Shown here: positions 7,483 to 55,427 of the stretch, piece after piece
How the letters are laid out: every line of letters begins with the position of its first letter
How positions within the stretch are numbered: position 1 is the stretch's first letter
Origin: Lichenicola sp.
GTDB lineage: Bacteria > Pseudomonadota > Alphaproteobacteria > Acetobacterales > Acetobacteraceae
Length of the DNA: 64,000 nucleotides
Assembly (NCBI RefSeq): GCF_965198575.1
Contig: NZ_OZ240671.1
Coordinates: 3,567,044 to 3,631,043, forward strand
Reading direction: 5' to 3'
Notes under the pieces: generated by a model
Told to the model about the DNA's origin: nothing
The model's database searches: none
Seen by the model: the letters and a program-made list of their open reading frames with translations, nothing else
Position numbers and translations under genes: made by a program

Positions 7483-10400
7483 CTACGCCGACGCCACGAG
7501 CCGCCTCGGCGCCGCAGGCGCGGTGTCCACGACCGGATACTCCAGGGTCGCGACCACCGTGATCTCCACCAGAATTGCCTCGGGTGGAAGCATCAGATCC
7601 GCCTCGCCATCGGTCCAGCGCCATGCGTGCGTCTCGTCGGCCTCGAGTGCCCACCATCCCTGCTCGAGCGTCTCGAGCCCTATCGCGACCGGATCAAGTC
7701 CGCCGGACGAGGTCCACACACAGATATGCCCGACCGCCACCCCGAGTGAACGGCGGTCGTCGAGCCATGGCATGGTGTCGGCCGGAGCAGCGTGCCGGGA
7801 CCGAAGCGTGAGCCGTGTCTGGCATCCGGGCCGGAGCAGAAACATGTGCCGCCCACCCGGCGACCGCTGCTCCGGCTCGAGCGACGTCCCGTCCGTCATC
7901 ACCAGCTGGAGTGCCGCATCCCTGCTCGTGGCAGGCTTCTGCACCTCATGGCCGAGAACAACGGCGCGCGCGGCCAGTGCCTCCCAGATCGGCTGGACTC
8001 GCGCAGCCGCGGTGACCAGGGGGGCGACGGCGCGGCTGTCGTCGCTGCGGGAGAAGTCCGCATGCAGCGCGAGCGGCGCGCCCCCGTTGCTGAACATGCA
8101 GCGGTTCCCGGTATCGAGATAGCTCTCCGCCTCGGCGCCCTCGGCAATCAGGATGCCGTGCCGCTCGAGTTCGACGTGAAAGTAATGCACGGCCGGCACC
8201 GACTCGATGGTGATGCTGCTGCCATTGACCAGCTGGCGAGCGGCGATCAGCACCCCATCCAGGAGCAGCGCGTGATCGGGCGAGAGGCGCAGCGGACGAG
8301 ACGGAATGCCGACATCGAGCGAGCCCGGGGCAAAGCGGACCGGATTGACCCGCGCCGGGTTCGGGTGCCGTGCCGGCTCCAGGCGTCGCTCGCCGACCCA
8401 GCTGACTGCCCGCAGCAGGTCCCGGCCGTCCTCGCGCACCACGAGCATGTCGCCGGCCTTGACCTCCTCGACGGCGACCTCTCCGGCCGGTCCGAGCAGC
8501 CTGGTGCCGGCGGCAAAACAGGGCGCCTCGACAAGGATGGTGCCGTCCGCCGCCTGATCCAGCCTCGGCATCACCGTCGACGCACCGGCGATGTCGAGGG
8601 AGACGGTTCCGGTCGGCGTCGTGACGGTCACGGTATCGCCGGATACGAGGATGCTGTCGGCACCCGGACTGTATGCGTAGGCGCCGAGATCGATGAAGTC
8701 GCCCGACCCGAAGCCGGAGATCACGTTGGTCGGCGCGGCCGCAGTGTCGATCCGCAGCGTGCCGGGATCTGCGAAACTGATGGCGCCGCTGCCGGCAGCG
8801 GACACGGTGCCGAGTTCCAGGGTGCCGCCGCTGATGATGCTGCCGCCGGTGTAGCCGTTGGAGGTGGCGAGCACGACGGTGCCTGGCCCGGACACGATCA
8901 CGTCCCCGCCGCCGCTGATGGTGCCGCTCTCGGTCAGCGTGCCGCCGCCTGCGAAGATGGCGTTGCCATAGCCGTTGCCGTCCGCATCGACGTACAGCGT
9001 GCCGCCGCTCTCGATCATCGCGTTGATCTCGGAGCCACCACCGCGCACGAGCTCGGTGGCACCGTTGGTGATGGTGGTGGCAGATCCCGTGCCGCCCGCA
9101 TCGATGGTGAGGCTGCCACCTGCGGAGAGGATTTCCGACAGCGCCGTGCCGCCGCCCTGGATCTCCTGGTACGCGAGGATGGTGTCCTGCGTGAACGTCC
9201 CGCCGGCCTCGGCGTATGTGGTGTTCTCGAGCGTCACGCCGCTGACGACACCGCCCGTATCGGCGATGAGCCGTCCGCCGCCGCTATAGATGCCGCCGGT
9301 GAGCGTGCCGGAGACCTGCAGATTGCCGTCCGCAGTGCCGCTGTTGGTGACGGTGCCGAGCAGCAGGCCATCCGCGTAGCCGGACAGGACCCCGCCGGCC
9401 GCGATGGTGCCGCCGCTCATCACGCCGATGCCGTGGCCGTCCGCGTCGAGATAGAGCGTGCCGCTGACGACGGCGTCGGTCTCGCTGCCGCCGCCATGGA
9501 CCAGCTCGTAGCCGGCGCTGATGACGGTGCCGGAGCCGGTGGCGCCGTCATCGATGAACAGGCTGCCACCCGACACCGTTTCCGACAGCGCCGTGCCGCC
9601 GGTCTGGACCTCTTCGCTGGCGACGATGGTATCGTGGGTCGCCGTCCCGCCGGCGGCCACCAGGGTCGTGTTCTCGAGCGTCACGCCGCTGATGACGCCC
9701 CCGGCATCTGCCTGCAGACGCCCGCCACCGCTATAGACACCGCCGCTCAGGATGCCCGAGACCTGCAGACTGCCTTCCGCGGTGCCGTCATTCGTGACGG
9801 TGCCGAGCAGCAGGCCGTCAGCCAGGCCGGAGAGAATGCCGCCGGCCGCGATGGTGCCGCCGCTCATCACGCCGATGCCGCCGCCGTCCTGGTCGAGATA
9901 GAGCGTGCCGCTGACGAGGGCGTTGATCTCGATGCCGCCGCCACGGACATACTCAAAGCCGGTGCCGATGACGGTGCCGGATCCGGTGGCACCGGCATCG
10001 ATGTAGAGGCTGCCGCCGGACACGGTTTCCGACAGTGCCGTGCCGCCGTTCTGGGCCTCTTCGCCGGCGACGATGGTGTCATGGGTTGCCGTCCCGCCGG
10101 CAGCCACCACTGTCGTGTTCTCGAGCGTCACGCCGCTGATGACGCCCCCGGCATCTGCCAGCAGGCGCCCGCCACCGCTATAGACACCGCCGCTCAGGAT
10201 GCCCGAGACGTCGAGGGTCCCTTCGGCGGTACCGCTATTCGTGACGGTGCCGAGCAGCAGGCCATCGGCCAGGCCGGAAAGAATGCCGCCGGCCACGATG
10301 GTGCCGCCACTCATCATGGCGACACCGTTGCCGTCTGCATCGAGGAAGAGCGTGCCGCCGCTGCTGACGATGGCGTCGGTCTCGCTGCCGCCGCCATGGA

Positions 10401-11877
10401 CATACTCGTAGCCGGTGCTGATGACGGTGCCGGATCCGGTGGCACTGCCATCGATGAACAGGCTGCCGCCGGAGACCGTTTCCGACAACGCCGTCCCGCC
10501 GGCGTAAATCTCCTCGCGGGCAAGGATGGCGTCGTGCGTGAGCGTGCCACCGGAGCCGGCGTAGGTGGCGTTCTCGATCATGACGCCGCTGACGACGCCG
10601 CCTGCATCGGCGAGCAGCCGTCCGGCGCCGCCATAGATGCCGCCGGCGAGCGTGCCCGAGACCTGCAGACTGCCTTCCGCGGTGCCGTCATTCGTGACGG
10701 TGCCGAGCAGCAGGCCGTCAGCCAGGCCGGAGAGAATGCCGCCGGCCGCGATGGTGCCGCCGCTCATCACGCCGATGCCGCCGCCGTCCTGGTCGAGATA
10801 GAGCGTGCCGCTGACGAGGGCGTTGGTCTCGATGCCGCCGCCCCGGACATACTCGAAGCCGGTGCCGATGACGGTGCCGGAACCGGTGGCACCGGCGTCG
10901 ATGTAGAGGCTGCCGCCGGACACGGTTTCCGACAGCGCCGTGCCGCCGGTCTGGATCTCCTCGTAGGCAACGATGGTGTCGTGGGTGGCTGTGCCACCGG
11001 CACCGACATAGGTGGTGTTCTCGATCAAGACCCCCGAGATGACGCCCCCGGCATCTGCCTGCAGGCGCCCGCCACCGCTATAGACGCCGCCGCTGAGGAT
11101 GCCGGAGACGTCGAGGGTGCCTTCGGCAGTACCGCTATTCAGGACGGTGCCGAGCAGCAGGCCATCGGCCAGGCCAGAAAGAATGCCGCCAGCCACGATG
11201 GTGCCGCCGCTCATCCTGCCGACGCCGCCGCCGTCCGCATCGAGGAAGAGCGTGCCGCCGCTGCTGACGATGGCGCCGGTCTCGCTGCCGCCGCCACGGA
11301 CATACTCGAAGCCGGTGCTGATGACGGTGCCGGAACCGGTGGCACCGGCATCGATGTAGAGGCTGCCGCCGGACACGGTTTCCGACAGCGCCGTGCCGCC
11401 GGCCTGGATCTCCTCGTAGGCGAGGATCGTGTCGTGGGTGGCTGTGCCGCCGGCACCGACATAGGTGTCGTTCTCGACCGTCACGCCGCTGATGACGCCA
11501 CCGGCATCCACGAGCAGCCGTCCGCCACCGCTATAGACGCCGCCGGCAAGGGTGCCGGAGACCTGCAGGTTGCCCGCGGCAGTGCCGCTGTTGGTGACGG
11601 TCCCGAGCAGCAGACCGTCGGCCTCGCCGGATAGGAGGCCGCCGAGCTCGATGGTGCCACCGTCCAGGATGCCGATGCCGCCGCCGTCTTCGTCCAGATA
11701 GAGCGTGCCGCCGAGCAGTACGTCGGCGCCCATCTCGACACCGCCGCCATGCACCAGCTCGACACCGCCGACGATGACGGTGGTGTCGATTGCCGTGCCG
11801 CCCGCATCGACGATCACTTCATTGATCGGGCTCGCGATCAAACCGGTGCTGGTGGAGCCACTGGTGACTTCAGTCAT
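7483..11877 (-). CDS. Large Hint-domain protein with AIDA-like strand-loop-strand repeats (putative glycosylated adhesin, 1464 aa)
   Basis: About 950 aa of G/S/T-rich repeats, one PATR-like repeat, Hint domain PCFAAGT...SPDHALL...YFHVEL..H..L.AEG..AESYLDTGNR, then a C-terminal beta-rich domain (DDRRSLGVAV, GWW..E, WRWTDGEA); AGGA RBS. Confidence 0.9.
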   Translation of the reverse strand: MTEVTSGSTSTGLIASPINEVIVDAGGTAIDTTVIVGGVELVHGGGVEMGADVLLGGTLYLDEDGGGIGILDGGTIELGGLLSGEADGLLLGTVTNSGTAAGNLQVSGTLAGGVYSGGGRLLVDAGGVISGVTVENDTYVGAGGTATHDTILAYEEIQAGGTALSETVSGGSLYIDAGATGSGTVISTGFEYVRGGGSETGAIVSSGGTLFLDADGGGVGRMSGGTIVAGGILSGLADGLLLGTVLNSGTAEGTLDVSGILSGGVYSGGGRLQADAGGVISGVLIENTTYVGAGGTATHDTIVAYEEIQTGGTALSETVSGGSLYIDAGATGSGTVIGTGFEYVRGGGIETNALVSGTLYLDQDGGGIGVMSGGTIAAGGILSGLADGLLLGTVTNDGTAEGSLQVSGTLAGGIYGGAGRLLADAGGVVSGVMIENATYAGSGGTLTHDAILAREEIYAGGTALSETVSGGSLFIDGSATGSGTVISTGYEYVHGGGSETDAIVSSGGTLFLDADGNGVAMMSGGTIVAGGILSGLADGLLLGTVTNSGTAEGTLDVSGILSGGVYSGGGRLLADAGGVISGVTLENTTVVAAGGTATHDTIVAGEEAQNGGTALSETVSGGSLYIDAGATGSGTVIGTGFEYVRGGGIEINALVSGTLYLDQDGGGIGVMSGGTIAAGGILSGLADGLLLGTVTNDGTAEGSLQVSGILSGGVYSGGGRLQADAGGVISGVTLENTTLVAAGGTATHDTIVASEEVQTGGTALSETVSGGSLFIDDGATGSGTVISAGYELVHGGGSETDAVVSGTLYLDADGHGIGVMSGGTIAAGGVLSGYADGLLLGTVTNSGTADGNLQVSGTLTGGIYSGGGRLIADTGGVVSGVTLENTTYAEAGGTFTQDTILAYQEIQGGGTALSEILSAGGSLTIDAGGTGSATTITNGATELVRGGGSEINAMIESGGTLYVDADGNGYGNAIFAGGGTLTESGTISGGGDVIVSGPGTVVLATSNGYTGGSIISGGTLELGTVSAAGSGAISFADPGTLRIDTAAAPTNVISGFGSGDFIDLGAYAYSPGADSILVSGDTVTVTTPTGTVSLDIAGASTVMPRLDQAADGTILVEAPCFAAGTRLLGPAGEVAVEEVKAGDMLVVREDGRDLLRAVSWVGERRLEPARHPNPARVNPVRFAPGSLDVGIPSRPLRLSPDHALLLDGVLIAARQLVNGSSITIESVPAVHYFHVELERHGILIAEGAEAESYLDTGNRCMFSNGGAPLALHADFSRSDDSRAVAPLVTAAARVQPIWEALAARAVVLGHEVQKPATSRDAALQLVMTDGTSLEPEQRSPGGRHMFLLRPGCQTRLTLRSRHAAPADTMPWLDDRRSLGVAVGHICVWTSSGGLDPVAIGLETLEQGWWALEADETHAWRWTDGEADLMLPPEAILVEITVVATLEYPVVDTAPAAPRRLVASA
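8104..8520 (-). other. Hint (bacterial intein-like, Hint_2/BIL-A type) domain
   Basis: Cys1 codon at 8520-8518 (residue 1120), block B SPDH, C-terminal ESYLDTGN. Confidence 0.85.
9000..11800 (-). repeat. Intragenic tandem repeat, about 6 units of 447/453 bp (149/151 aa) with a 900-bp higher-order period
   Basis: Anchor TCCGACA at 11381, 10928, 10481, 10028, 9581, 9134 (spacings 453, 447, 453, 447, 447); 9761-9925 is identical to 10661-10825. Confidence 0.9.
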
Positions 11878-11892
11878 GTCTGGTGTTTCCTG

Positions 11893-13149
11893 TTATCGCT
11901 TGGCTGCAGCTGAAAGATCGCGAAGGCCGATGGCGCGCAGGCCGGACTTCACGTGTTCGGCAGTAATCGAGCGGGTGCACTCGAAGGCACGGTCGGTGCC
12001 CTTGTGACGCGGGCACCACAAATAATCGGCGTGGTCGAAACGGTACCGAGGGTCGTTCCAGCACGAGTTGCAGACGTGCCAGTTGATCACGCGGCCTGGC
12101 GTGGCGAACTCGTTGGTCGGATGCGTGAAGCCCGAGATCATCACCACCGGACAGCCGGCCGCCCAGGCGAGCCAGGCCAGTCCCGAAGAGCAACCGACGA
12201 AAGCCGCAGCGTGACGCAGCCAGCGCGCGCGCTCGATCAGCGGCCTGTCGCCGGTCTCGTCCTCGGCGCCATGCGGCATCGGCGTCCAGACCAGGCCCCT
12301 GCCGTGGACCTGCTCCCTGTCGATGCAGATCACCCGGTAGCCTTGCGACTTCAGGTGCCGGACGATCTCCAGCCAGCCATGCGGATTGGTCCATTTCTTG
12401 GCATGCGTGCTGGCCTGCACGGCGATGCAGACGTACGGCTCCGCGACCGGCCTGCTCTCGTCGGGAAAGAACAATTCGGGCGCTGCCTCGACCGGGTCGA
12501 CGCCCAGGATGTAGCCGGCCGTACGATGCAGGCCGACATGCCGAAAGTCGGTCGGCTGCCAGATGTTTTCAGCGTCGTCGAAGAACAGGCCTATATTATA
12601 CGTCGCGTAGTATCGGTCTGCTTCCACCTGCGCATGGCCGATGAACCGGATATGCGGATAGGCACCCTCGAACAACGGGATCAGCCGCTCCGCCATCGCC
12701 ACGGTCAGCCGGCACTCATGCACGGACTGGAACCGCACGGCGTAGGGCATCCAGCCGACGCTGTCGCCGATGGTTCCGACCGGTAAAGTGATCAGCACGT
12801 CGCGGTCGCATGCGTCGAAGCGGTGCGACATCAGGAGGACGCCGGCCGTGTCCCAGACCTCGAGCGAGAAGCGCACGAAGAAGCGCTTGCCGCTCTGGAT
12901 CGTGACCCCGCCGCGGGTGCTCTCGAACAGGATGTTGCCGGTGTCGAGGTCGCGCAGCCTTGCACGAAATTGTCCCAGGGGAAGCTGCAGCCGCGCACCC
13001 AGGTTGAAGTCGTAGCGGATCCCCACGGGCCCCTCCTGGGTCGGGCGCGCCGCCGGAGGCGGGAAATTGGGCATCCGGATCGGGGGCTCGTCCTTGACCT
13101 GCGCTGCCGGGCCGGCAGCTTCGAGATCGATCGGAAGCAGCTGGTTCAT
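11893..13149 (-). CDS. Autotransporter strand-loop-strand O-heptosyltransferase (Aah/TibC, BAHT family), copy 1
   Basis: GIRYDFNLGAR, TIGDSVGW (catalytic Asp), CIAVQASTHAKKWTNP, SSGLAWLAWA, Fe-binding CNSC...CPRH...FEC; start at 13149. Confidence 0.9.
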   Translation of the reverse strand: MNQLLPIDLEAAGPAAQVKDEPPIRMPNFPPPAARPTQEGPVGIRYDFNLGARLQLPLGQFRARLRDLDTGNILFESTRGGVTIQSGKRFFVRFSLEVWDTAGVLLMSHRFDACDRDVLITLPVGTIGDSVGWMPYAVRFQSVHECRLTVAMAERLIPLFEGAYPHIRFIGHAQVEADRYYATYNIGLFFDDAENIWQPTDFRHVGLHRTAGYILGVDPVEAAPELFFPDESRPVAEPYVCIAVQASTHAKKWTNPHGWLEIVRHLKSQGYRVICIDREQVHGRGLVWTPMPHGAEDETGDRPLIERARWLRHAAAFVGCSSGLAWLAWAAGCPVVMISGFTHPTNEFATPGRVINWHVCNSCWNDPRYRFDHADYLWCPRHKGTDRAFECTRSITAEHVKSGLRAIGLRDLSAAAKR

Positions 13150-14372
13150 GCGGCTCGCCCGACCCTGGCTGATACCGTCTGCCGGTGCGCGCCGAAGCCG
13201 GGGATGCGTTCGATCACCGTCTGCACGTGCTGAGCCGTGATCAGGCGGCTGCATTCGAATTGTCGGGCGGTGCCGGCATGCCGCGGGCAGAACAGGAAAT
13301 CGCGAGGGTTGAACTGGTGGCGGAGGTCGTTGGCGCAGCCGTTACAAGCGAAATCGTTGGTGACGCGGTACGTCGCCGCGAATTCGTTCAAAGGCAACGT
13401 GAAGCCGCCGATCATCACGACCTCGGTGCCGACCGCCCAGGCAAGCCAGGAGAGGCCGCTCGACAAACCGACAAAGAATGCAGCGTGGCGCAACCAGCGC
13501 GCCCTTTCCGAAAGCGGGCGGTCGCCGGTCTCGTCCTCGGCCCCGTGGGGGAGGTGGTTCCAGACCAGGCCGCTGCCGTTGACCGGCTGCCGGTCGATGC
13601 AGATCACCCGGTAGCCAGCCTGTTTCAGGAACGCGATGACCTGCGTCCAGCCAAGCGGATTGTTCCAGTATTTGGCCTGGCTCGTTGCTTGCGTCGCTAT
13701 GCACACATACGGCTCGTCGATCGGCCGGCCGCCCGGATCGATCGACAGCTTCGGGCGGCGATCCTCCAGCGACAATCCCAGGATGTGAGCAGCGGCGTGG
13801 GACAGCCCGACCTGACGATAATCGCTGGGTTGCCAGTCATGATCGTGGTCGTTGTAGAAGATACAGACCTTGTAGGTGGCGTAGAACGCCGTGCGTTCCA
13901 GCAGCGTCGCCAGCTCGGCGGCGGTCACGAGGCGCAGCTCCGGCTGCATCGAACCCAGGAGCGGCACGAGGGCCGGAGCGACGCAGCAGGTCACCCGAGC
14001 TGCATGGGCAACGGCGAATGAAGCGGCCTGGCCAATCCAGGCCAGCTGGTCGCCGAGCCCTCCAAGCTCCATCCGGATTAACACCTCGCGTTCGCGGAGG
14101 TCGAGCCGATGGTCGAAGACGAGGCTGCCGTCCAGCCGCAGTTCGATATGGAACCGGACGAAGTATTTCTTGAGGCTGAGGATCGTCCCGCCGGCAGAGG
14201 CTGCGTCGCACAACACGCTGCCGGTTTCCAGATCCGTCAGGCGCACCTGCCAATTCCCAGGCGGCAGCAGGATCCGGCACCCCTCATTGAAGTCGAAACG
14301 AACACCATGCGGGCCGATGCAGGCCGGAATGGCGGAAATCCTGGTCGATGCCGATACGGCCGGGGGGGTCAT
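13146..14372 (-). CDS. Autotransporter strand-loop-strand O-heptosyltransferase (Aah/TibC, BAHT family), copy 2
   Basis: GVRFDFNEGCR, GLGDQLAW, CIATQATSQAKYWNNP, SSGLSWLAWA, CNGC...CPRH...FEC; ATGA overlap with copy 1. Confidence 0.88.
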   Translation of the reverse strand: MTPPAVSASTRISAIPACIGPHGVRFDFNEGCRILLPPGNWQVRLTDLETGSVLCDAASAGGTILSLKKYFVRFHIELRLDGSLVFDHRLDLREREVLIRMELGGLGDQLAWIGQAASFAVAHAARVTCCVAPALVPLLGSMQPELRLVTAAELATLLERTAFYATYKVCIFYNDHDHDWQPSDYRQVGLSHAAAHILGLSLEDRRPKLSIDPGGRPIDEPYVCIATQATSQAKYWNNPLGWTQVIAFLKQAGYRVICIDRQPVNGSGLVWNHLPHGAEDETGDRPLSERARWLRHAAFFVGLSSGLSWLAWAVGTEVVMIGGFTLPLNEFAATYRVTNDFACNGCANDLRHQFNPRDFLFCPRHAGTARQFECSRLITAQHVQTVIERIPGFGAHRQTVSARVGRAA

Positions 14373-14465
14373 GATGCTTCAGTCGGCAAGTATAACCCAG
14401 TCATCGAAGTCGCCTCACGGTGCCGTCGCGTCGTGAGCGGCAAGCTAGGCAGGGGTCGTGAAACA

Positions 14466-14489
14466 GTCGTCATGCATATGCATGACGAC
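14466..14489. promoter_or_regulatory. Perfect 24-bp palindrome, candidate operator
   Basis: GTCGTCATGCAT-ATGCATGACGAC between the divergent heptosyltransferase operon and the LuxR-type gene. Confidence 0.55.
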
Positions 14490-14607
14490 CATTCCTTTCC
14501 CGTTTTATTACCGCTCGTTCAGGGCAGTCTCGTTACTCTCCCGCTTTACAATAGCGCGGCTGCGATTAGGCTTCCGACCCAGTCCAAGGGCTGCCAATGG
14601 TGTCGCG

Positions 14608-15756
14608 GTGATCGATTTCGACCGTCTCGACGGTGCCCTTGAACTTATATACGACGCTGCGGTCGATCGACACCGACAACCTCGACTGCTCGCGGAACTT
14701 GCAAGTCTTTTCAACGCGCACTTCTCGGACAGCTTCACTCGAACTGTCGATTTTTCCACTTTCAGCGGCAGGGTCCATGGTCTCGACCGTCGTGATTACG
14801 AAGACGAGTTTCTCGGAATATGGGTCAAGCGGAATGTCTGGAGTCAGAAGCGTCCGGTCGTCAGGGCGGGCGAGATTTTGACAACGCGGGACATGGTTTC
14901 GATCAGCGACCTGCGAGCAAGCGAACTCTTCAACGAATATCTCGACGTCCGCGGGCTGCACGAGGGCCTGAGGTTCGACCTGTTCGCCGATACGGAAGTC
15001 ATCGAGGATATTTCCATTCTGCGCGACTGGAAGGCGGGCCCGTTCCAGGCAGGAGAACTCCGGGCGGCACGAGTACTGCTGCCGCATCTGTGCCGGTCCC
15101 GGATGGTCAGCCGGCGGCTGGACGAGGCCAAGATGCTCGCAGGGGCCGGGCTGGCCGCGCTGGACCAGATCAGGACGGCGATCCTGGTGCTGGACCGGCG
15201 TGGCCGTGCGATCCACCGGAACGCTGCCGGCCGCCGGCTGCTCGACGCCGGTGACGGCCTCGTCCTGACCGCCACGGGGTTGGCCGCAGCAAACAGCACG
15301 GAGACCCGTCGATTGGAGGTGATGATCAGCCGTGCTGCGGGTGTACACGGTCGTCCGGGACGATCCGGAGCGATCCGACTGCAGAGGCCGGCTGGTGGCC
15401 CGGCGCTCCTGCTCATTGCGTTGCCGCTTCCGGAAGGGCGGCCACCAGCGGAGAGCGAGCCGATCGCGGAACTCCTGCCACTGTCGTCTCCGCGCGTGCT
15501 GCTGACGATCATCGACCCGGCGGTGCGTGGTCTATTGCCGCAGAGCCAGCTCGTGGCGCTCTTTGACCTGACGCCGGCGGAGGCACATCTCGCGACCGAG
15601 CTGCTTGGCGGCGACGACCTGCAGGCGATCGCAACGCGGAGCGGCCGCAGTATCAACACCGTCAGAAGCCTGCTTGGACGGTTGATGTCCAAGACCGAAA
15701 CCCGGCGACAGTCCGAGCTGATGCGGATGCTGTCCCAGCTCCCTGCTGCGGCATGA
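14608..15756 (+). CDS. LuxR-type HTH transcriptional regulator with N-terminal sensor/PAS-like region
   Basis: C-terminal LFDLTPAEAHLA..L..G..L..IA...G.S..TVR..L..L..KT.T.RQSEL; PAS-like ILVLDRRGRAIHRNAAG; start uncertain (GTG 14608 versus track start 14458). Confidence 0.85.
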   Translation: MIDFDRLDGALELIYDAAVDRHRQPRLLAELASLFNAHFSDSFTRTVDFSTFSGRVHGLDRRDYEDEFLGIWVKRNVWSQKRPVVRAGEILTTRDMVSISDLRASELFNEYLDVRGLHEGLRFDLFADTEVIEDISILRDWKAGPFQAGELRAARVLLPHLCRSRMVSRRLDEAKMLAGAGLAALDQIRTAILVLDRRGRAIHRNAAGRRLLDAGDGLVLTATGLAAANSTETRRLEVMISRAAGVHGRPGRSGAIRLQRPAGGPALLLIALPLPEGRPPAESEPIAELLPLSSPRVLLTIIDPAVRGLLPQSQLVALFDLTPAEAHLATELLGGDDLQAIATRSGRSINTVRSLLGRLMSKTETRRQSELMRMLSQLPAAA

Positions 15757-16335
15757 ACCCGCACCGCTCAGGGATTGCGATCAGGCCAATTCGGGCACGA
15801 CCTTGGCAACGCCGCTGTCGCCTGATGCCAACCTTGCCGCGACGCTGAATTCATCGATGTCCGCCCGATCTGCATCGCCTTGTAACCGAAATGGCGTTCA
15901 ATCGATCGCCCGGATGTCGTCGTGCCGTCACGAAGTGCCCCTGCAGAGCCAATGCGGCTTGCAGACGCTGACGGAACGCCACGAGAAGATGACAGCCTGA
16001 TCCGCGTGATGATCCGCGTGGTAATTGTGGGATCAGCTACGGTTGAGGACGTTGCCGGAGGTGGCGATCACCGAAAAGGTGACACCGTCCCGAAGTACTG
16101 CAGCATGTGCGACGCCGTCGCTGCCGCGATATCACGTTGCGTCCCATCATAGACGCCGCCTGATCTTCCGTGCATGTGTCGAACATCGATCATGATCACG
16201 AAAAAGCAAGGCCGGGGCACAATGCGACGCCGCTGCGACACTGATGGGACGCCGTGCACGCAGCGTCCCGCGTTCGGTTGATCGAAGCTCCCCGACACCG
16301 CCCCGATCGGCCGGAACTCAGCCCAGGTCGGGAGC

Positions 16336-26207: not shown

Positions 26208-26972
26208 GTGACGGCAATCGCACTTTCCGCCCTGCGTGCGCAGATCTCGGCGCTGGAACGAGGCGGCGCCAAACACCCTGCAGGGGCTGCCGTGCTGCCG
26301 TTCGGGATCGAGGCGGTGGATCGCCACCTGCCCGGTGGTGGCCTGGCCCTTGGTGCCGTGCATGAGGTGTCTGCCGCCGGCCCGGAGGTGGAGCAGGGTG
26401 CCTGCGCGGCGCTGTTTGCAGCCGGGCTGCTGGCGCGTCGGCCAGGTCCGGTGCTCTGGATCCTGGGCCGGCAGGACCTGTTCAGCGCCGGACTGGCCGG
26501 TGCCGGGCTGGATCCCGCGCGCCTGGTTCTGGTGCGGGCGCGACAGCAGGCGCTGCTGGCGATGGAGGAGGGGCTCCGGCATCCCGATCTCGCCGGTGTG
26601 GTTTGCGAGATCGAGGGCCGTCTCGACCTGGTCGCATCGCGTCGCCTGCAACTCGCCGCGGAAGCCTCCGACGTGCTGGGCCTGGTGCTGCGCCGCAGCC
26701 GCAAGTTCAACGACCCTGCGCTCACCGCGCCCTCTGCCGCATCCAGCCGCTGGCGGATCAGCGGCCTGCCGTCGCCGCCTCCGCTGGCGCATGCCCCGGA
26801 CCTGGCCGGGCTTGGCCGACCGCTCTGGCGCCTCGAGCTGCTGCGCTGTCGCGGCGCAGACTCTGCAACCTGGATCGTGGAGGCCAGCGATGCGTCGGGT
26901 CATCTCGCTTTGGCTTCCGTTCTGGCCGACCGAACGGCTGCGCCGGCACCACTCCGCCGCGCTGCCGGCTGA
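26208..26972 (+). CDS. imuA: Mutagenesis protein ImuA
   Basis: LPFGIEAVDRHLPGGGLALGAVHEV, AMEEGLRH, SRRLQLAAE, RLELLRCRG; GGAG RBS before GTG 26208. Confidence 0.9.
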   Translation: MTAIALSALRAQISALERGGAKHPAGAAVLPFGIEAVDRHLPGGGLALGAVHEVSAAGPEVEQGACAALFAAGLLARRPGPVLWILGRQDLFSAGLAGAGLDPARLVLVRARQQALLAMEEGLRHPDLAGVVCEIEGRLDLVASRRLQLAAEASDVLGLVLRRSRKFNDPALTAPSAASSRWRISGLPSPPPLAHAPDLAGLGRPLWRLELLRCRGADSATWIVEASDASGHLALASVLADRTAAPAPLRRAAG

Positions 26973-28410
26973 TGCCCCGCTGGTCACGCGCGGCCATGAC
27001 GGACGTCGGATGACGATCGCCGCCGCCTGTCCGGCCGCGCGCCAGCTGGGACTGCAGGCCGGGATGCCGCTCGCGCATGCGCAGGCCATGGTTCCGGATC
27101 TGACGATCGTCGATGCCACGCCGGCCGACGATGCGGAGGCGCTGGAGCGGCTCGCCGCCTGGTGCCTGCGGCTATCACCGATGACCGCGGCGGACCCGCC
27201 GGACGGTGTCTGGATCGACGCGACCGGCTGCACCCATCTGCACGGCGGCGAGCAGCCGATGCTGCGGATGCTGTCGGAGCATCTGGCCCGGTCCGGCCTC
27301 ACCGGACGGATCGCGATCGCCGATACCCCGGGTGCCGCGCATGCGGTTGCACGCTACGGCGATCACCCGGTGACGCTGATTGCACCGGACGGGCAGGCGG
27401 CTGCCATCGCACCGCTCCCGATCGCCGCCCTGCGCCTCGACGCCGACACCGCAGCCGGCCTGTGCCGCCTCGGACTGGAGACCGTCGGCCAGCTTGTCGG
27501 CGCGTCCCGAGCGCCGCTGGCCAGGCGGTTCGGCAACGGGCTGATGATCCGCCTCGACCAGGCGACTGGCCGGGTGCGGGAGCCGATCCAGCCCGTGCTG
27601 CCACCCGAAACGATCGCGATCCGCCGCACCTTCGTCGAGCCGCTTTCGACCGCCGAAGCCTTCGTGACGGTGATCCTGGTGCTGGTCAGGCAAGCCTGCA
27701 CGCTCATGGAGCAGCGCGGCGAGGGTGCCCGCCGGCTCGACCTGGTGTTCGAGCGCGTCGATGCGACGGTGCAGGTGATCCGGATCGGCACTGCGCGACC
27801 GGTGCGCGATGTCCGGCATCTGGCGCGACTGCTGGACGAGCGGGTCGAGGAGGTCGATCCCGGTCCCGGGGTCGAGGCCATGCGCCTGGTGCTGCCGCTG
27901 GTCGAGCCGCTTGCCTACACGCAGCGGAGCGGCGGCCTAGCTCCGGGCGACAAGGACGAGGCCGATCTGTCGGAGCTGATCGACCGGCTGGTGAACCGTC
28001 TTGGACCCGACAAGGTGCATCGGCTGCAGGCGGTCGAGAGCGATGTGCCGGAGCGGTCGCAGCACCTTGTCTCGGTGTATGCGCCGGCCGCCGCGAGCAC
28101 GCCCGTCTCCCCCTGGCCGCGACCGGTCAGGTTGTTGCCGCGTCCCGAGCCGGTCGAGGCCCTGGCGATGATGCCGGACCACCCGCCCCGGGCCTTCACC
28201 TGGCGCAAGATCCGGCATCGCATCCGGCGTGCGGACGGGCCCGAGCGGATCACCGGCGAGTGGTGGCACCGGTCCTCCGAAATCTCGGCGGTGCGTGACT
28301 ACTGGACGGTCGAGAACGACGAGGGCCGGCGCTTCTGGCTGTTCCGCCAGGGTGACGGCGTCGATCCGGCGACCGGCGGTCTCTCCTGGTTCCTGCACGG
28401 CTTTTTCTGA
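26890..28410 (+). CDS. imuB: Y-family polymerase-like scaffold ImuB
   Basis: MRRVISLWLP, DGVWIDATG, LPIAALRL, RPVRLLPRPEP, GPERITGEWW, RDYW, WFLHGFF. Confidence 0.93.
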   Translation: MRRVISLWLPFWPTERLRRHHSAALPADAPLVTRGHDGRRMTIAAACPAARQLGLQAGMPLAHAQAMVPDLTIVDATPADDAEALERLAAWCLRLSPMTAADPPDGVWIDATGCTHLHGGEQPMLRMLSEHLARSGLTGRIAIADTPGAAHAVARYGDHPVTLIAPDGQAAAIAPLPIAALRLDADTAAGLCRLGLETVGQLVGASRAPLARRFGNGLMIRLDQATGRVREPIQPVLPPETIAIRRTFVEPLSTAEAFVTVILVLVRQACTLMEQRGEGARRLDLVFERVDATVQVIRIGTARPVRDVRHLARLLDERVEEVDPGPGVEAMRLVLPLVEPLAYTQRSGGLAPGDKDEADLSELIDRLVNRLGPDKVHRLQAVESDVPERSQHLVSVYAPAAASTPVSPWPRPVRLLPRPEPVEALAMMPDHPPRAFTWRKIRHRIRRADGPERITGEWWHRSSEISAVRDYWTVENDEGRRFWLFRQGDGVDPATGGLSWFLHGFF

Positions 28411-28426
28411 TTGCGATGTTCCTGCC

Positions 28427-28666
28427 ATGACCGACGACGACAAACGCACCCTCCGCCCGGCAAGTGCCGAGGAGATCGAGCAGAGCCTGTCCTTTGCGCT
28501 GCGCTATGATGGCCGCAAGCGGGTCCGCCACGCCGACGACGCCATGGCACGGATCACTGCCGAACGGCTGGTGGCACATCTCGAACGTTCCGGCTACGTG
28601 CTGATGAAGCGACCGGACGCCAGAGCGCCGTCGATCAGCGACAACCGGTACTCGAACAACGACTGA
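28427..28666 (+). CDS. Small hypothetical protein (79 aa) inside the imu cassette
   Basis: ATG 16 bp after the imuB stop; protein-like sequence (LSFALRYDGRKR..HADDAMARITAERLVAHLERSG). Confidence 0.7.
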   Translation: MTDDDKRTLRPASAEEIEQSLSFALRYDGRKRVRHADDAMARITAERLVAHLERSGYVLMKRPDARAPSISDNRYSNND

Positions 28667-28854
28667 TCAAGTACGATTGCCCTTGTAGAGTCCATGAATT
28701 CAGGTCCCCTCGTGAAACTCGGGAATGATGCCGTCATGCGGCTGCGGCGGACCCGAACGCTGGTGTTCATCCTCTTGGACAAGAGGTCCAGGTTTCTTTC
28801 GCCATCTGAAGGCATCTTCAATCATTCGCAATTGTCCAGACTCGTTGCGCGCCA

Positions 28855-31800
28855 ATGCTGAAAGTTGATAGCTACGTCGAGCTGCAGGTGACGTCGAACT
28901 ACTCCTTTCTGCGCGGCGCCAGCCACGTCGAGGAGCTGTTCCTTGCCGCCAAGGCGCTCGGCCTGTCCTCGATCGCGATCACCGACCACAACACGCTGGC
29001 CGGCATCGCCCGGGCGCACGCCCGCGCCGAGGAGGTCGGCATCCGGCTCATCGTCGGCTGCCGTATCGATCTCCGCGACGGGCTGCCGCTGCTGGTCTAT
29101 CCGACCGATCGCGCCGCCTACGCCCGGCTCTGTCGTCTGCTGACGCTGGGCAAGGGGCGGACCGGCAAGGGCGGTTGCGACCTGTGCTGGCAGGACCTGG
29201 TCACATTGGGCGAGGGGCTGCTGCTGATCCTGCTGCCCGACGCGCCGGACGCCCGTCTCGAGACCGAGCTCCGCCGGATGCGCACGAGCTTCCCCGAAAG
29301 CTGCCACCTCGCCTTGACCGTGCGCCGGCGCCCAGGTGACGCCATCCGGCTCCGGCAACTGCACGATCTGGCGCAGGCGACGCGCGTGCCGACGGTGGTG
29401 ATCGGCGATGTGCTGTTTCACCATCCTGCCCGTCGCATCCTGCAGGATGTCGTCACCTGCATCCGCGAGAAGCGCACGATCGACACCCTCGGCTTCAAGC
29501 GCGAGCGGTTCGCCGATCGGCACCTCAAGACGCCCGACGAGATGGCACGGCTGTTCGCAGCCTACCCGGAGGCGCTGCAGCGGAGCGTCGAGATCGCCGA
29601 TCGTTGCCGTTTCAGCCTGTCGGAGCTGCGCTACCAGTATCCCGACGAGGCCGACGTTCCGGGCGAGACGCCGCAGCAGGCGCTCGAGCGCGCGGTGCGT
29701 GACAGCATCACCCTGCGCTACCCGGACGGCCTGCCGGCGGACGTGGCCAAGCAGCTGAGACACGAGCTCGATCTGATCGGCTCGCTCGACTACGCCTCCT
29801 ATTTCCTGACCGTGAACAGCATCGTCCGCTACGCACGGTCGCAGGACATCCTGTGCCAGGGCCGCGGGTCTGCCGCCAACTCGGCGGTCTGCTACGTGCT
29901 CGGCGTCACCTCGATCGATCCGGTCCGCTCCGGCCTGCTGTTCGAGCGGTTCATCTCGGCCGAGCGGCGCGAGCCACCCGACATCGACGTCGATTTCGAG
30001 AGCGAGCGCCGCGAGGAGGTGATCCAGTGGGTCTATGACCGCTATGGCCGCGACCGGGCTGCGTTGTGCTGCACCGTCATGCGCTTCCACGCCCGCGGCG
30101 CCATTCGCGACGTCGGCAAGGCGATGGGGCTGCCGGAGGATCTGACCGGCGCGCTGGCGACCCAGGTCTCGGCCTGGGCGAACGACGGTGTCAGCGAGGA
30201 GCACGCGGAAGAGCTCAACCTCAACCTGTCGGACCGGCGCCTGCGCCTGACGCTGGAGCTCGCCCGGCAGCTGATCGGCTTTCCGCGGCAGCTCGGCACG
30301 CATCCGGGTGGCTTCGTGCTGACCCAGGACCGGCTGGACGATCTGGTGCCGATCGAGCCGGCGGCGATGACCGATCGTCAGGTCATCGAGTGGGACAAGG
30401 ACGATATCGACGCGCTCAAGTTCATGAAGGTCGACGTGCTCGGGCTGGGCATGCTCGGCTGCATGCGCCGGTCGTTCGAGCTGCTCGCGTCCGAGAAGCG
30501 TATCCCGATGGATATCGCCGGCATCCCGCCCGAGGATCCGGCGACCTACGCGATGATCCGCAAGGCCGACACGCTCGGGACGTTCCAGATCGAGAGCCGG
30601 GCGCAGATGTCGATGCTGCCGCGGCTCAAGCCGACCACCTTCTACGACCTGGTGGTGCAGGTCGCGATCGTCCGGCCGGGACCGATCCAGGGCGACATGG
30701 TGCACCCGTATCTCCGCCGGCGGGACGGCACCGAGCCGGTCCATTATCCCAAGCCCGAACTCGAGGCGGTGCTCGGCAAGACGCTCGGCGTGCCGCTGTT
30801 CCAGGAGCAGGCGATGCAGGTCGCCATCCAGTGCGCGGGCTTCACGCCGGGCGAGGCGGACCAGCTGCGCCGCTCGATGGCGACCTTCAAGTTCACCGGC
30901 GGCGTCTCGCACTTCAAGACCAAGCTGATCGAGGGAATGGTCGACAAGGGCTACGAGCGGGAGTTCGCCGAGCGCACGTTCAGCCAGCTGGAAGGCTTCG
31001 GCTCCTACGGTTTCCCGGAGAGCCATGCTGCGTCTTTCGCGTTGATCGCCTACGCCTCGTCCTGGATGAAGTGCCACCACCCGGACGTGTTCTGTGCCGC
31101 TCTGCTCAACAGCCAGCCGATGGGGTTCTACGCGCCGGCGCAGGTGGTGCGGGACGCACGCGAGCATGGCGTGGAGATCCGGCCGGTCTGCGTCAATGCC
31201 AGCCGCTGGGACTGCACGCTGGAGCCCGCATCCGGCCGGCGAGGGCGGACTGGGTTCGCCGTCAGGCTGGGCCTGCGGATGACCAAGGGGCTGTCCAACG
31301 AGCATGGCGCGCGGCTGGTCTCGCAGCGGGGCAGCACGCCGTATGGCAGCGTCGAGGAGTTGTGGCGTCGCGCGGACGTGCCGGCAGTGGCGCTCGAGCG
31401 GCTGGCCGAGGCGGACGCCTACCAGGCAATTGGTCTCGATCGCCGGCAGGCGCTCTGGCAGGTGAAGGGGCTGGCCGACCAGGCGTTGCCGCTGTTTGCC
31501 GCCGCCGATCTGGGTCGGCGACCGCGGCCCGAGCTGGTCGAGCCGCCGGTCGTGCTGATCCCGATGAAGGACGGCCGCGAGGTGGTGGAGGATTATCGCA
31601 GCGTCGGGCTGAGCCTGCGCTCCCACCCGGTCTCCTTCCTCCGCGACGGCCTCCGGACGCGGGGGATGATCACCTGCGCGGCACTCAGGACCATCCGCGA
31701 CGGGCGGCGGGTCATCGTGCCGGGGATCGTGCTGGTGCGACAGAAGCCGGGCTCCGCCAAGGGCGTGATGTTCATCACCATCGAGGACGAGACCGGGGTG

Positions 31801-32142
31801 GCAAACCTGATCCTGTGGCCGGACCGGTTCGAGAAGCAGCGCCGCCTGGTGCTGTCGGCCGGCATGATCGCGTGCCATGGCAAGCTGCAGCGTGAGGGGG
31901 ATGTGACCCACGTGGTCACGGATCGGCTGGAGGACCTGACGCCGCTGCTGCGCTCGGTCGGCAACCAGGACACGCCGTTCCCTCTGCAGCATGGTCGCGG
32001 CGATGCGGTGACGCACCCAGGTGCTGCGGATCCACGCGACGGACCCGGAGCAGGACCGGGCGGGCGCCCCGTCCGGGACATCTACGTGCCGGACCTGCAC
32101 ATCAGGTCAGGCATCAAGGTGCCGACGCGAGATTTCCGCTAA
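28855..32142 (+). CDS. dnaE2: Error-prone DNA polymerase DnaE2 (ImuC)
   Basis: PHP domain ([16 protein letters not shown]), [25 protein letters not shown]-terminal TRDFR motif. Confidence 0.96.
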
Positions 32143-48519: not shown

Positions 48520-48797
48520 CCGGTCCGGCTGGCGTCCACACTTGTTAGTGACGTGTTCAGTCATGTTAGTAACTTGACGCTGTGTTCTTTTTGGGAACGC
48601 CCCTCTTGCGGCCAGATTCCCGTTGCCTCCTCAATCCGCCCCGGCCTACTCTAAATGACGGTCGTGAGACTGACCGGCCGCTGCAACAGACGGCCCTCCC
48701 TCGAACGCTGCGCTCAAACGTAACCGCCCTTGCGGGTGTCCACGTTTTGTCTGCAGCTTCGAGAGTTGATTGTTGTTGACTGGGTCGTTTGGGATCG

Positions 48798-50456
48798 ATG
48801 GCGGGAGCGGGGTGGGTGAGAGTGACGTCCAGCAGGTATGAGCGCGACGCCCCGGAAGTGGATGCGGCTGTCGAAACACGAAACGAGGCGCCCGCCTGCG
48901 CGCCCTACCGTCAGGCCTTTGCCGCAGGCGCTTCCGGCCTTGACGAGCAATATTCGACGTCCGGGCATCCGCTCGGCGAGCATTGGTCACGCATCTGCGG
49001 CCGGCTGCAGAACGAGGTCGGCGAGGTCGAATATCGCACCTGGCTGCGGCAGATGACGCTTGGCGCTGTCGATCACGACGAGATCACGCTCTATTTGCCG
49101 ACCAGGTTCCTGCGCGACTGGGTGCGCAGCCAGTATGGCGACCGGCTTGGCGCCCTGTGGAATACCGAAGTCCCGCAAATCCGGCGTGTCGAGCTCATGC
49201 TGTCACCCGAGGCGCATGCCGCGGGACCATCTGCCGGGATCGCGACATCGACGGCGCCGGGTGCCGCGCCGGTACCGCTGGTCGCCGGCGGATCGAGCAA
49301 GGCGTTTTCCCCTGAGACAGCCTCGGAGGCGCCCAGGGGTTTTTCCGCTGCGTCGTCTCGATCCTCAGGCACGGTGTCGGTGCCCCACGCGGCGGCCGCC
49401 ATCCCGGAGCCGCGTGGCGATCTGGCAGCGCCGCTGGATCCCCGCTTCTCGTTCGAGGCCTTCGTCGTCGGCAAGCCCAACGAGTTCGCTTATGCCTGTG
49501 CGCGCCGGGTTGCCGAAAGGCCGTCCAGCCCGGGCTTCAACCCGCTGTTCCTGTATGGCGGCGTCGGGCTCGGCAAGACCCACCTGATGCACGCCATCGG
49601 CCTGGAGCTGACCCGCCCGGCCCGGCCACAGGGTGCCGTGTCGGTCGCCTACATGTCGGCCGAGAAATTCATGTACCGCTTCATCGCGGCGATCCGCTCG
49701 CAATCGACGATGGAATTCAAGGAGCAGCTGCGTTCCGTCGACGTGCTGATGATCGACGACCTGCAGTTCCTGATCGGCAAGGACAACACGCAGGAGGAGT
49801 TCTTCCACACCTTCAATGCGCTGGTCGATGCCGGCAAGCAGATCGTGGTGTCGGCGGACAAGTCGCCGTCGGATCTGTCCGGCCTCGAGGACCGGCTGCG
49901 CACGCGGCTCGGCTGCGGCATGGTCGCCGACCTGCACGCGACCACTTTCGAACTGCGCATCTCCATCCTCGAGGCCAAGGCGCTGGCATCCGGCGTCGCG
50001 GTGCCGCCCAAGGTGCTGGAGTTTCTCGCCCACAAGATCACCACCAACGTGCGCGAGCTCGAGGGTGCGTTGAACCGGATGATCGCGCACGCCAATCTGT
50101 TCGGCCGCTCGGTGACGCTGGATGCGACGCAGGAGGTGCTGCACGACATCCTCAAGGCGCATGACCGGCGCGTCACCATCGAGGAAATCCAGCGCAAGGT
50201 CTCCGAGCACTGGAATATCCGCCTCACCGACATGTCGTCGGCGCGTCGTGCCCGGGCGGTGGCGCGGCCGCGCCAGGTGGCGATGTATCTCGCCAAGCAA
50301 TTGACCAGCCGGTCGCTGCCCGAGATCGGTCGCAAGTTCGGCAATCGCGACCACACCACCGTCATGCACGCGGTCAGCCGGGTGACCGAGCTGATGGAGC
50401 GCGACACCGCATTCGCCGAGGACGTCGAGCTGTTGCGCCGCATGCTGGAGAGCTGA
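48798..50456 (+). CDS. dnaA: Chromosomal replication initiator DnaA
   Basis: GGVGLGKTHL, DDLQF, RELEGAL, RPRQVAMYL, RDHTTVMHA; start uncertain. Confidence 0.97.
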   Translation: MAGAGWVRVTSSRYERDAPEVDAAVETRNEAPACAPYRQAFAAGASGLDEQYSTSGHPLGEHWSRICGRLQNEVGEVEYRTWLRQMTLGAVDHDEITLYLPTRFLRDWVRSQYGDRLGALWNTEVPQIRRVELMLSPEAHAAGPSAGIATSTAPGAAPVPLVAGGSSKAFSPETASEAPRGFSAASSRSSGTVSVPHAAAAIPEPRGDLAAPLDPRFSFEAFVVGKPNEFAYACARRVAERPSSPGFNPLFLYGGVGLGKTHLMHAIGLELTRPARPQGAVSVAYMSAEKFMYRFIAAIRSQSTMEFKEQLRSVDVLMIDDLQFLIGKDNTQEEFFHTFNALVDAGKQIVVSADKSPSDLSGLEDRLRTRLGCGMVADLHATTFELRISILEAKALASGVAVPPKVLEFLAHKITTNVRELEGALNRMIAHANLFGRSVTLDATQEVLHDILKAHDRRVTIEEIQRKVSEHWNIRLTDMSSARRARAVARPRQVAMYLAKQLTSRSLPEIGRKFGNRDHTTVMHAVSRVTELMERDTAFAEDVELLRRMLES

Positions 50457-50567
50457 CGCCGCCTCCCGGAATGGCGCTTCCGGGCCAGCTTTCCCTGTCA
50501 ATCCCGGACTGCTAGCATCGGCCTCCCCCGTGCGATCCCCTTCTTTTTCTCCGGCGAGACCAGGACC

Positions 50568-51692: not shown

Positions 51693-51727
51693 CGCCAAAC
51701 ACGCACGGCGCGCGTCCGGCGGCCTGC

Positions 51728-55427
<3,700 letters not shown>

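Follow-up and report, generated by a model that had tools for sequence, protein, structure and literature searches.

What does an autotransporter heptosyltransferase glycosylate when the gene next to it encodes no autotransporter? The question is raised by a locus in a 64-kb stretch of DNA from Lichenicola sp. (Acetobacteraceae; assembly GCF_965198575.1, contig NZ_OZ240671.1, positions 3,567,044 to 3,631,043; hereafter the window), in which two genes of the BAHT heptosyltransferase family, BAHT2 and BAHT1, are followed by a gene for a 1464-residue repeat protein bearing a Hint domain. To our knowledge, the only proteins that BAHT enzymes are known to O-heptosylate are the autotransporter virulence adhesins of Enterobacteria and Burkholderia. 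We consider it probable that the three genes form an operon of an Acetobacteraceae-like alphaproteobacterium of peat or soil, encoding two BAHT enzymes together with their cognate substrate, a non-autotransporter repeat protein processed by its Hint domain. The novelty of the locus lies in this class of substrate, canonical BAHTs being paired with a Hint-bearing protein that is no autotransporter, and not in the enzymes; the new protein-glycosylation system proposed in an earlier note on this DNA is thus new in its substrate alone. The features of the operon, in window coordinates, are as follows.

13146 to 14372, minus strand: BAHT2, 408 residues, a divergent O-heptosyltransferase paralogue of the TibC/Aah family (TIGR04414, 548 bits)
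11893 to 13149, minus strand: BAHT1, 418 residues, an O-heptosyltransferase of the TibC/Aah family (TIGR04414, 593 bits)
11878 to 11892, minus strand: spacer of 15 nt with AGGAAA, resembling a ribosome-binding site, ahead of the large gene (read from the sequence)
7483 to 11877, minus strand: large gene for the 1464-residue putative heptosylation substrate, comprising repeats, pre-Hint module, Hint domain and C-terminal domain (open reading frame and profile scans)
8878 to 11877, minus strand: repeat passenger, residues 1-1000 (tandem DNA array, super-repeat alignment, TIGR04415)
8521 to 8892, minus strand: PATR-like repeat, residues 996-1022, and β-rich pre-Hint module, residues 1023-1119 (PATR score, structural model)
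8101 to 8520, minus strand: Hint/bacterial intein-like domain, residues 1120-1259 (Hint_2 at 138 bits, AlphaFold2, Foldseek)
7486 to 8094, minus strand: C-terminal domain, residues 1262-1464, one helix and a β-sandwich (conservation, AlphaFold2)

Open reading frame (ORF) calling and third-codon-position G+C (GC3) place three consecutive genes on the minus strand (14372-13146, 13254/13149-11893 and 11877-7483) of the window, whose G+C content is about 67%. The second ORF aligns with TibC from residue 69 onward only and has an internal ATG at 13149, where an ATGA overlap with the end of BAHT2 can be read directly (ATG at 13149-13147, TGA at 13148-13146); BAHT1 is therefore taken to be a protein of 418 residues starting at this ATG. 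The direct reading agrees with the layout given in the earlier note, BAHT2 being followed through the ATGA overlap by BAHT1 and, 15 bp further on, by the 1464-residue gene. By this reading the three genes appear arranged as a translationally coupled operon, and would be co-transcribed.

With 593 bits for BAHT1 and 548 for BAHT2, both transferases greatly exceed the 200 bits set as equivalog cut-off for TIGR04414; they carry the TibC_1st (PF21129, 80 and 86 bits) and Glyco_transf_9 (PF01075) domains, and align over their full length with TibC (PDB 4RAP) at 416 bits for BAHT1 and 362 bits for BAHT2 (residues 9-381 and 16-386). Conservation of individual residues was scored by comparing the printed TibC alignments with published residue roles. 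In TibC, Asp110 is the catalytic base, Thr226, Lys230, Arg286 and Trp305 bind the sugar, and a 1Fe-0S iron finger (Cys339, Cys342, Cys358 and Cys370) is needed for the dodecamer together with the interface residues Phe265, Val266 and Phe368 (Yao et al., PMC4358343). Asp110, Lys230, Arg286, Trp305, Phe368 and the four cysteines are identical to TibC in both BAHT1 and BAHT2. Thr226 is retained in BAHT2 and is Ser in BAHT1, while positions 265 and 266 read Leu-Val in both enzymes, Phe265 having been replaced by Leu, and so remain hydrophobic. Residue 300, which sets selectivity between D,D- and L,D-heptose, is Ser in both enzymes and also in Aah, which accepts the D,D- and the L,D-form of ADP-heptose (PMC4358343). 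By their profiles and alignments, both enzymes are bona fide, canonical members of the BAHT family, agreeing with it in each defining trait that sequence can reveal save that of an autotransporter substrate, and are probably cytoplasmic, dodecameric iron-finger enzymes.

The two enzymes share 51% identity and differ in how closely they resemble other proteins. BAHT1 is 73-77% identical to its nearest relatives, from uncultured Acetobacteraceae, and BAHT2 is at most 59% identical to anything found; a metagenome scan with BAHT2 returned nothing above 57% identity and revealed no wider BAHT2-type lineage. In the most closely related locus, on a metagenome contig (L089), the orthologues of BAHT1, BAHT2 and the large protein are 77%, 59% and 58% identical, respectively. 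A rough neighbor-joining tree, calculated without support values, sets BAHT2 apart, in one clade with the second BAHT from each of two further loci (L004 and L024). Given its lower identity to relatives and this separate clade, BAHT2 can be regarded as a faster-evolving second paralogue. Genes of BAHT2 type were seen only alongside a gene of BAHT1 type (window 13146-14372, L004 3795-5816, L024 8411-9682, L089 3319-4521). Hetero-oligomers and differing site specificity are the obvious hypotheses for having two BAHTs. A second paralogue, Aah2, is reportedly present in E. coli.

The large gene would supply the acceptor. Residues 1-1000 make up 68% of the protein and consist to 45% of Ser, Thr and Gly (25% Gly, 12% Thr, 9% Ser), arranged in about six super-repeats of 149-151 residues that are themselves built of strand-loop-strand units; at the DNA level they form a tandem array at 9132-11711 with a period of 447 bp, 5.7 copies and 81% matches. 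Twenty-three SGG motifs occur in the repeats. The TibC heptosylation site in TibA is the Ser of NSGG, and by analogy the Ser-Gly-Gly turns of the window protein are likely heptose acceptors. Many homologues of the large protein carry the Pfam AIDA repeat. Of the features of an AIDA-I-type autotransporter, only the repeats are present, and these in part: a signal peptide and a barrel were not found, the N-terminus MTEVTSGSTSTGLIASPINEV having no basic or hydrophobic signal-peptide features and the autotransporter β-domain (PF03797) having no match in the protein, while NF033176 scores 20.5 bits relative to a cut-off of 1200. The passenger is followed by a PATR match at residues 996-1022 (24.5 bits, under the cut-off of 27) and by the pre-Hint module (residues 1023-1119), which contains ISGFGSGDFIDL and is modeled as β-rich with a predicted local distance difference test (pLDDT) score of about 80-86. 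The same module forms the C-terminus of other BAHT partners (L009, L016 and L043). Neither the large protein nor the divergent regulator described below had a match in PADLOC.

A long gene with internal 447-bp repeats of 81% identity, lacking both signal peptide and barrel, might be taken for the functionless relic of an autotransporter or for an artefact of assembly. The ORF is nevertheless intact over 1464 residues, with a gene-like GC3 of 0.85, and a contig from an independent run matches 11600-14600 exactly, although it covers only the first 278 bp of the gene and about 110 bp of the array. Hundreds of proteins share this architecture, with catalytic residues that do not vary. With an intact frame, a recurrent architecture and these residues, we reject decay or artefact as scarcely credible.

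Downstream of the repeats, Hint_2 (PF13403) is matched at 138 bits over residues 1119-1256. The nucleophile is Cys1120 (codon 8518-8520), His1202 lies within SPDH, and a conserved LDTGN ends at Asn1258; Cys1120 and the block-B His1202 are invariant in all 40 aligned homologues. Asn1258, of the near-invariant TGN, is followed by Arg; if the domain ends at this Asn, no +1 nucleophile suited to splicing is conserved. We modeled the C-terminal 464 residues by AlphaFold2 (AF2) with a 40-sequence alignment (pLDDT 85). The model orders the β-rich module, a short disordered linker, the Hint domain (residues 1120-1259, pLDDT >90), a second linker and the C-terminal domain (CTD). Foldseek matched the Hint domain best to the bacterial intein-like (BIL) domains 6tmm and 2lwy (E 3e-6, target-normalized TM-score about 0.65), then to inteins, then to Hedgehog 1at0. 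The main activity of BIL domains is cleavage, not splicing (reviews PMC7664689, PMC7765530), and the pattern of Cys1, His and TGN followed by Arg therefore fits a BIL domain. To judge from these residues, the Hint domain is apparently active.

The passenger and the Hint domain are thus much as the earlier note had described them from the letters alone. Its estimate that about two-thirds of the large protein is Ser/Thr/Gly repeat, its reading of a protein with neither signal peptide nor β-barrel, its Hint domain, and its identification of two BAHT heptosyltransferases beside this non-autotransporter substrate are all upheld by the profile scans, the full-length TibC alignments, the fold match and the invariant Cys and His. 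Its description did not include the conserved domain of 200 residues that follows the Hint domain.

This CTD has no Pfam match. Modeled alone (AF2 pLDDT 87), it comprises one helix and a β-sandwich, for which a Foldseek search of the PDB returned nothing at E <0.01. The best, non-significant resemblances are to carbohydrate-binding modules, fibre knobs and Ig domains (TM-score at most 0.26 normalized to the query and 0.34 to the target); these are generic β-sandwiches, and no function was assigned to the CTD from them. The Hint domain lies near the C-terminus in each of the large protein's 120 best homologues, of which 101 match the CTD at least partly and a subset has only a 45-75-residue tail after the Hint domain. 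The CTD also contains invariant Ser, Arg, Gly and Trp positions.

Hint domains act as releasing peptidases ahead of polymorphic-toxin tips. The window protein, too, has its Hint domain directly before a C-terminal domain, and BIL domains are mentioned in papers on contact-dependent inhibition and MafB; the repeats could then be a delivery stalk, the Hint domain the releasing peptidase and the last 200 residues a toxin with an immunity gene downstream. Such a toxin tip is ruled out, however, because the CTD is not hypervariable: it is conserved across those 101 of 120 homologues and the 1,917 clusters described below, invariant positions included. The 378 bp downstream of the gene hold no plausible small ORF that could encode immunity, the next gene being a GFO/IDH/MocA oxidoreductase; no downstream gene is conserved across related loci, and the CTD fold has no toxin match. 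We therefore reject the polymorphic-toxin explanation, which we rate as highly improbable.

The pairing of BAHT with a Hint-bearing repeat protein is not confined to the window. We scanned GTDB species-representative genomes with a BAHT alignment, obtained 253 relatives and examined the best 80 loci (L001-L080). A Hint ORF lies within 10 kb of the BAHT gene in 20 of the 80, and in 16 a Hint-bearing repeat ORF is found no more than 1.5 kb away, in most cases as the next gene downstream on the same strand and often overlapping. These loci come from Acetobacteraceae, Rhodopila, Acidocella, Stellaceae, Xanthobacteraceae and unclassified alphaproteobacterial metagenome-assembled genomes (MAGs). Within 10 kb, the only real genes common to all 20 Hint loci are the BAHT gene and the gene for the Hint-bearing repeat protein; the other shared clusters are overlapping-frame ORFs of these two. 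Metagenome contigs retrieved with BAHT2, a more diverse and more fragmented sample, have a Hint partner in 4 of 80 loci. In the cultured Acetobacter sicerae (GCA_011516765.1, L087), the BAHT gene and the substrate gene have 4 bp in common. The earlier note had made recurrence in other genomes a check on its proposal, and the linkage does recur, in both sets of loci and in A. sicerae.

Adjacency could still be incidental, if the BAHTs act on some conventional autotransporter from another locus and the Hint protein has no part in it. Every characterized BAHT substrate is an autotransporter (PMC4358343), most genes with a Hint-CTD end are not linked to BAHT, and about a third of BAHT loci have no adjacent repeat gene. 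The coupling is nonetheless tight, with a gap of 15 nt here and overlaps of 4 bp elsewhere; the pairing is found in at least 16 species-level genomes of several families; the partner has SGG-rich AIDA-type repeats; and barrels among the 80 loci are restricted to two Burkholderiaceae. Taken together, these points make a chance neighborhood unlikely, and we retain the view that the repeat protein is the cognate substrate.

The remaining BAHT partners place the Hint-bearing substrates in a wider context. An autotransporter barrel was found only in Paraburkholderia (L060) and Trinickia (L061), both Burkholderiaceae, and a scan of ten non-Hint partners likewise returned a barrel in these two only. 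Other partners have ends resembling those of RTX/type I-secreted proteins (L017, L034, L037 and L038), a DUF4214 domain (L019) or a Big_13 domain (L020), or consist of AIDA repeats that end after an ISGF...IDL module ('ISGFxxGDxIDL'; L009, L016, L043 and L072). Since the alphaproteobacterial partners almost never have a barrel, the family name 'autotransporter heptosyltransferase' is too narrow. In the neighbor-joining tree, again without support values, Hint-partnered enzymes are interspersed with RTX-partnered and otherwise-partnered ones. The interspersion, and the finding that Hint-CTD genes are usually free of BAHT, indicate that BAHT is linked to the repeats and not to the Hint domain: the BAHT gene travels with a strand-loop-strand passenger, whose C-terminal module, be it Hint-CTD, RTX or another, is exchangeable.

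Several genes near Hint loci bear on modification more broadly. In Acidisphaera sp. S103 (L082 5879-9939), a GT4 gene together with GHMP kinase, SIS and nucleotidyltransferase genes lies upstream of a Hint gene (P0008), a set that looks like a nucleotide-heptose pathway, and in two further Hint proteins (P0037 and P0094) a glycosyltransferase domain, PF13692, is fused inside the protein. From this GT4 cluster and the fused domains, it seems that more than one type of enzyme glycosylates members of the Hint family. Sulfotransferase genes recur in five Hint loci (L010 20278-21168, L057 9607-10503, L075, L031 and L056), as do FkbM-type methyltransferase genes (five loci, including L029 8930-9757, L041 18207-19061, L021 and L044); neither occurs in the window. 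Their presence suggests that the glycan or the protein is modified further.

To delimit the CTD family, we searched 1.84 billion representative proteins with phmmer (E <=1e-3), which returned 1,917 representative clusters at 50% identity. Among the matches listed, the CTD stands at the extreme C-terminus in 150 of 150, and the Hint domain lies immediately upstream in 138 of the top 149, the exceptions being short fragments. Hint-CTD is thus a large family of C-terminal cassettes, usually not linked to BAHT. Its passengers vary widely, with PATR, AIDA, pectate-lyase-like and FG-GAP-like examples. Although these passengers are of extracellular type, a crude test recognized a start resembling a signal peptide in only about 3 of 99 full-length cassette proteins, which points to export by a non-Sec route. 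The extreme C-terminus is also biased in composition: among the Hint-CTD proteins compared (P0001-P0120 and P0181-P0329), the final residue is Ala in 68%, the final two are Ala-Ala in 43%, and Arg or Lys occurs within the last 8 residues in 81%. The window protein ends in RRLVASA (window 7486-7510). This biased end might act as a tag for recognition, whether by ClpXP in the manner of ssrA or by an export route. On a contig labelled as a Terriglobia MAG (L016 16925-17230), a short CTD-matching ORF directly follows a 1920-residue, Hint-less AIDA-repeat BAHT partner, and could be a frameshift, a remnant or the product of a mis-binned contig.

What the cassette does can be approached from its order of domains. 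We tentatively suggest, at rather low probability, that Hint_2-CTD is an unrecognized C-terminal export or attachment device of Alphaproteobacteria, directing passengers glycosylated in the cytoplasm to a route independent of Sec and then, with the CTD as guide and in a Hedgehog-like manner, either releasing the passenger through the Hint thioester or linking it covalently to an envelope acceptor; its BAHT-linked members would then be heptosylated surface adhesins. A narrower and more doubtful version holds that the CTD recruits an envelope acceptor, whether lipid, lipopolysaccharide (LPS) or peptidoglycan, and that the Hint thioester anchors the passenger covalently to it and does not release it. 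Hedgehog proteins share the order of a Hint domain followed by an adduct-recognition region (PMC7765530); the CTD, for its part, is always directly after the Hint domain and always C-terminal, Cys1 and His are invariant, apparently with no conserved splicing-type +1 nucleophile, and the β-sandwich bears its non-significant resemblance to carbohydrate-binding modules and fibre knobs. The comparison remains one of analogy, however: some homologues have just the 45-75-residue tail after the Hint domain, no acceptor or binding site was identified, and B-type BIL domains simply cleave in vitro (reviews PMC7664689, PMC7765530).

For the operon in the window, we propose the following sequence of events. 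One or both of BAHT1 and BAHT2 would hyper-heptosylate the passenger in the cytoplasm, with ADP-heptose as donor and Ser residues within SGG turns as acceptors, the substrate being a putative repeat protein of β-helix type. Export would follow by a Sec-independent route that is encoded elsewhere and reads the C-terminal cassette. Cys1120 may undergo an N-S acyl shift at the Pro1119-Cys1120 bond, and the resulting thioester would then either be hydrolyzed or pass the passenger on to an acceptor. Such cleavage would part the glycosylated passenger (residues 1-1119) from the Hint-CTD portion, and the passenger may serve at the cell surface, as an adhesin or in aggregation.

Several observations weigh against this reading. 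TIGR04415, the NCBIfam model of the O-heptosylation target repeat, is matched by the large protein at 32.1 bits, barely above its cut-off of 30, and Pfam AIDA (PF16168) has no match in it at E 0.01; the repeats are therefore AIDA-like yet divergent. The proposed model does not account for the need for a second BAHT. Most BAHT loci have no Hint partner and, as a reverse check from the Hint side, the genomic context of eight Hint-CTD family members was inspected: one (A. sicerae, L087) has an adjacent BAHT gene, one (Acidisphaera sp. S103, L082) another glycosyltransferase and six neither. The 64-kb window contains no secretion-system gene, and none recurs in related loci. Cassette proteins hardly ever contain RTX nonapeptides (2 of 149 do, and of the 120 homologues, among them the window protein, none has two or more), so the classical RTX type I route is without support. 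No RNA sequencing run containing the locus was found. Because most Hint-CTD genes lack BAHT and most BAHT loci lack Hint, the pairing must be facultative, and the coupling of Hint processing with glycosylation envisaged by the earlier note is not specific, given about 1,900 Hint-CTD clusters, one BAHT-linked member in eight and an interspersed tree.

Upstream of BAHT2 lie two further features:

14458 to 15756, plus strand: divergent regulator of the LuxR/CsgD family, assigned from its homologues; a candidate member of the system only
14466 to 14489, unstranded: perfect 24-bp palindrome GTCGTCATGCATATGCATGACGAC, a candidate operator, also flagged by the terminator scan

The regulator ORF has no Pfam or NCBIfam match at E 0.01 and no match in a sequence search of the PDB. 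Its 60 homologues, of about 370-390 residues, include some that carry PF00196 (GerE) and are named CsgD-family or PAS regulators. These homologues are shorter and span 88% of the ORF, so translation probably begins some 50 codons further in, near 14600, and yields a protein of about 378 residues. In L089 a regulator of 73% identity is divergent from a BAHT2-type gene, which is followed by a BAHT1-type gene (4-bp overlap) and the large gene; this synteny fits recent common descent and is not proof of a functional requirement. No homologue occurs in any of the 80 loci L001-L080, and a 50%-identical relative is unlinked to BAHT (L090/L091). The regulator as a general member of the module was accordingly rejected, L089 alone showing the synteny: the divergent regulator of the earlier note is a real ORF, with a start that probably lies further in, but does not belong to a conserved module. 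The palindrome GTCGTCATGCATATGCATGACGAC between BAHT2 and the regulator is a possible operator. The region at 14001-16000 has a G+C content of 0.63 and a GC3 of 0.71, below that of neighboring genes (GC3 0.81-0.89), which may reflect a different origin or weaker codon adaptation.

Housekeeping genes flank the operon: downstream lie a sugar ABC transporter and the GFO/IDH/MocA oxidoreductase, and upstream a LytTR-type two-component pair. No exporter of the ATP-binding cassette/membrane fusion protein type was found in the window. Within the same 64 kb, an Rfam scan gave zero matches and a promoter scan found no promoter-like site; two terminator-like matches, one of them the intergenic palindrome, did not exceed the expectation from shuffled sequence. 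The genes dnaA, dnaN, recF and gyrB lie at 48789-55427, about 35 kb from the operon in the case of dnaA, so the window is chromosomal and near the replication origin. At 26236-32142, an ImuB-like gene (IMS and DUF6504) is followed by a gene for a DnaE2-type error-prone polymerase alpha subunit, the pair being a damage-inducible mutagenesis cassette. Peat and air metagenomes contain the source organism or close relatives. Among sequencing runs, only three carry the locus exactly, all from the genome's own sample; one of these data sets (run X1) yields a single 8-kb contig of even depth over the locus, which we read as genomic. Three peat metatranscriptomes gave partial matches only, of about 33-44 bases at 90-95% identity.

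How far does the locus resemble systems already described? As in Aah/AIDA-I and TibC/TibA, a TibC-family enzyme is encoded beside a Ser-rich strand-loop-strand repeat protein with SGG-type motifs, and the catalytic, sugar-binding, iron-finger and oligomerization residues of TibC are kept, apart from Thr226 to Ser in BAHT1 and Phe265 to Leu in both enzymes. The substrates of those systems are autotransporters, whereas the window protein has no signal peptide, no autochaperone or β-barrel and no Pfam AIDA match, and ends instead in Hint and CTD. In further contrast, the two transferases appear to be translationally coupled in tandem, and the host is an environmental alphaproteobacterium. The RTX/type I giant adhesins found beside BAHT genes (L017, L034, L037 and L038) share the AIDA-type repeats, the upstream BAHT, the bacterial groups and the lack of a signal peptide, but carry at their C-terminus RTX nonapeptides and a tail like that of type I secretion substrates, neither of which the window protein possesses.

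For the C-terminal half, the closest comparison is with the B-type BIL domains (Hint_2), which share the Hint fold, Cys1, the block-B His and, apparently, the lack of a conserved +1 nucleophile, and from which N-terminal autocleavage would be expected. They share, too, a location in non-conserved, secreted-type alphaproteobacterial proteins; the assignment to the B-type is tentative. In the literature searched, no BIL domain is tied to protein glycosylation or to a CTD of 200 residues. The Hog domain of Hedgehog offers an analogy in its order of passenger, Hint and C-terminal accessory region, and in a Cys-initiated thioester that would be open to an external nucleophile; its sterol-recognition region has no similarity to the CTD in sequence or fold, and, unlike Hedgehog, the window passenger has no signal peptide and would be glycosylated in the cytoplasm. 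We found no paper that joins a Hint domain with a heptosyltransferase or an exoproteome, in a search that did not extend to subscription journals, so that 'undescribed' is provisional. The searchable literature contained no discussion of TIGR04414 or TIGR04415, and a search for PF13403/Hint_2 returned only the unrelated human gene HINT2. A 'Hint domain-containing protein' appears, as a protein of unknown function, in a study of an acetic acid bacterium published in 2025.

These data place the BAHT family beside proteins that are unable to use type V secretion, in the window as in most of the alphaproteobacterial relatives examined. A self-cleaving, glycosylated β-helix scaffold of this kind could serve glyco-engineering. 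If the substrate is confirmed, cytoplasmic protein heptosylation would gain in range, of substrates and of habitats, and take in bacteria of soil and peat as well as acetic acid bacteria, and the locus would offer a tractable entry into the very large, uncharacterized family of 'Hint domain-containing proteins'. It would also follow that the enzyme tracks the strand-loop-strand repeat, and not the secretion system by which the repeat protein leaves the cell.

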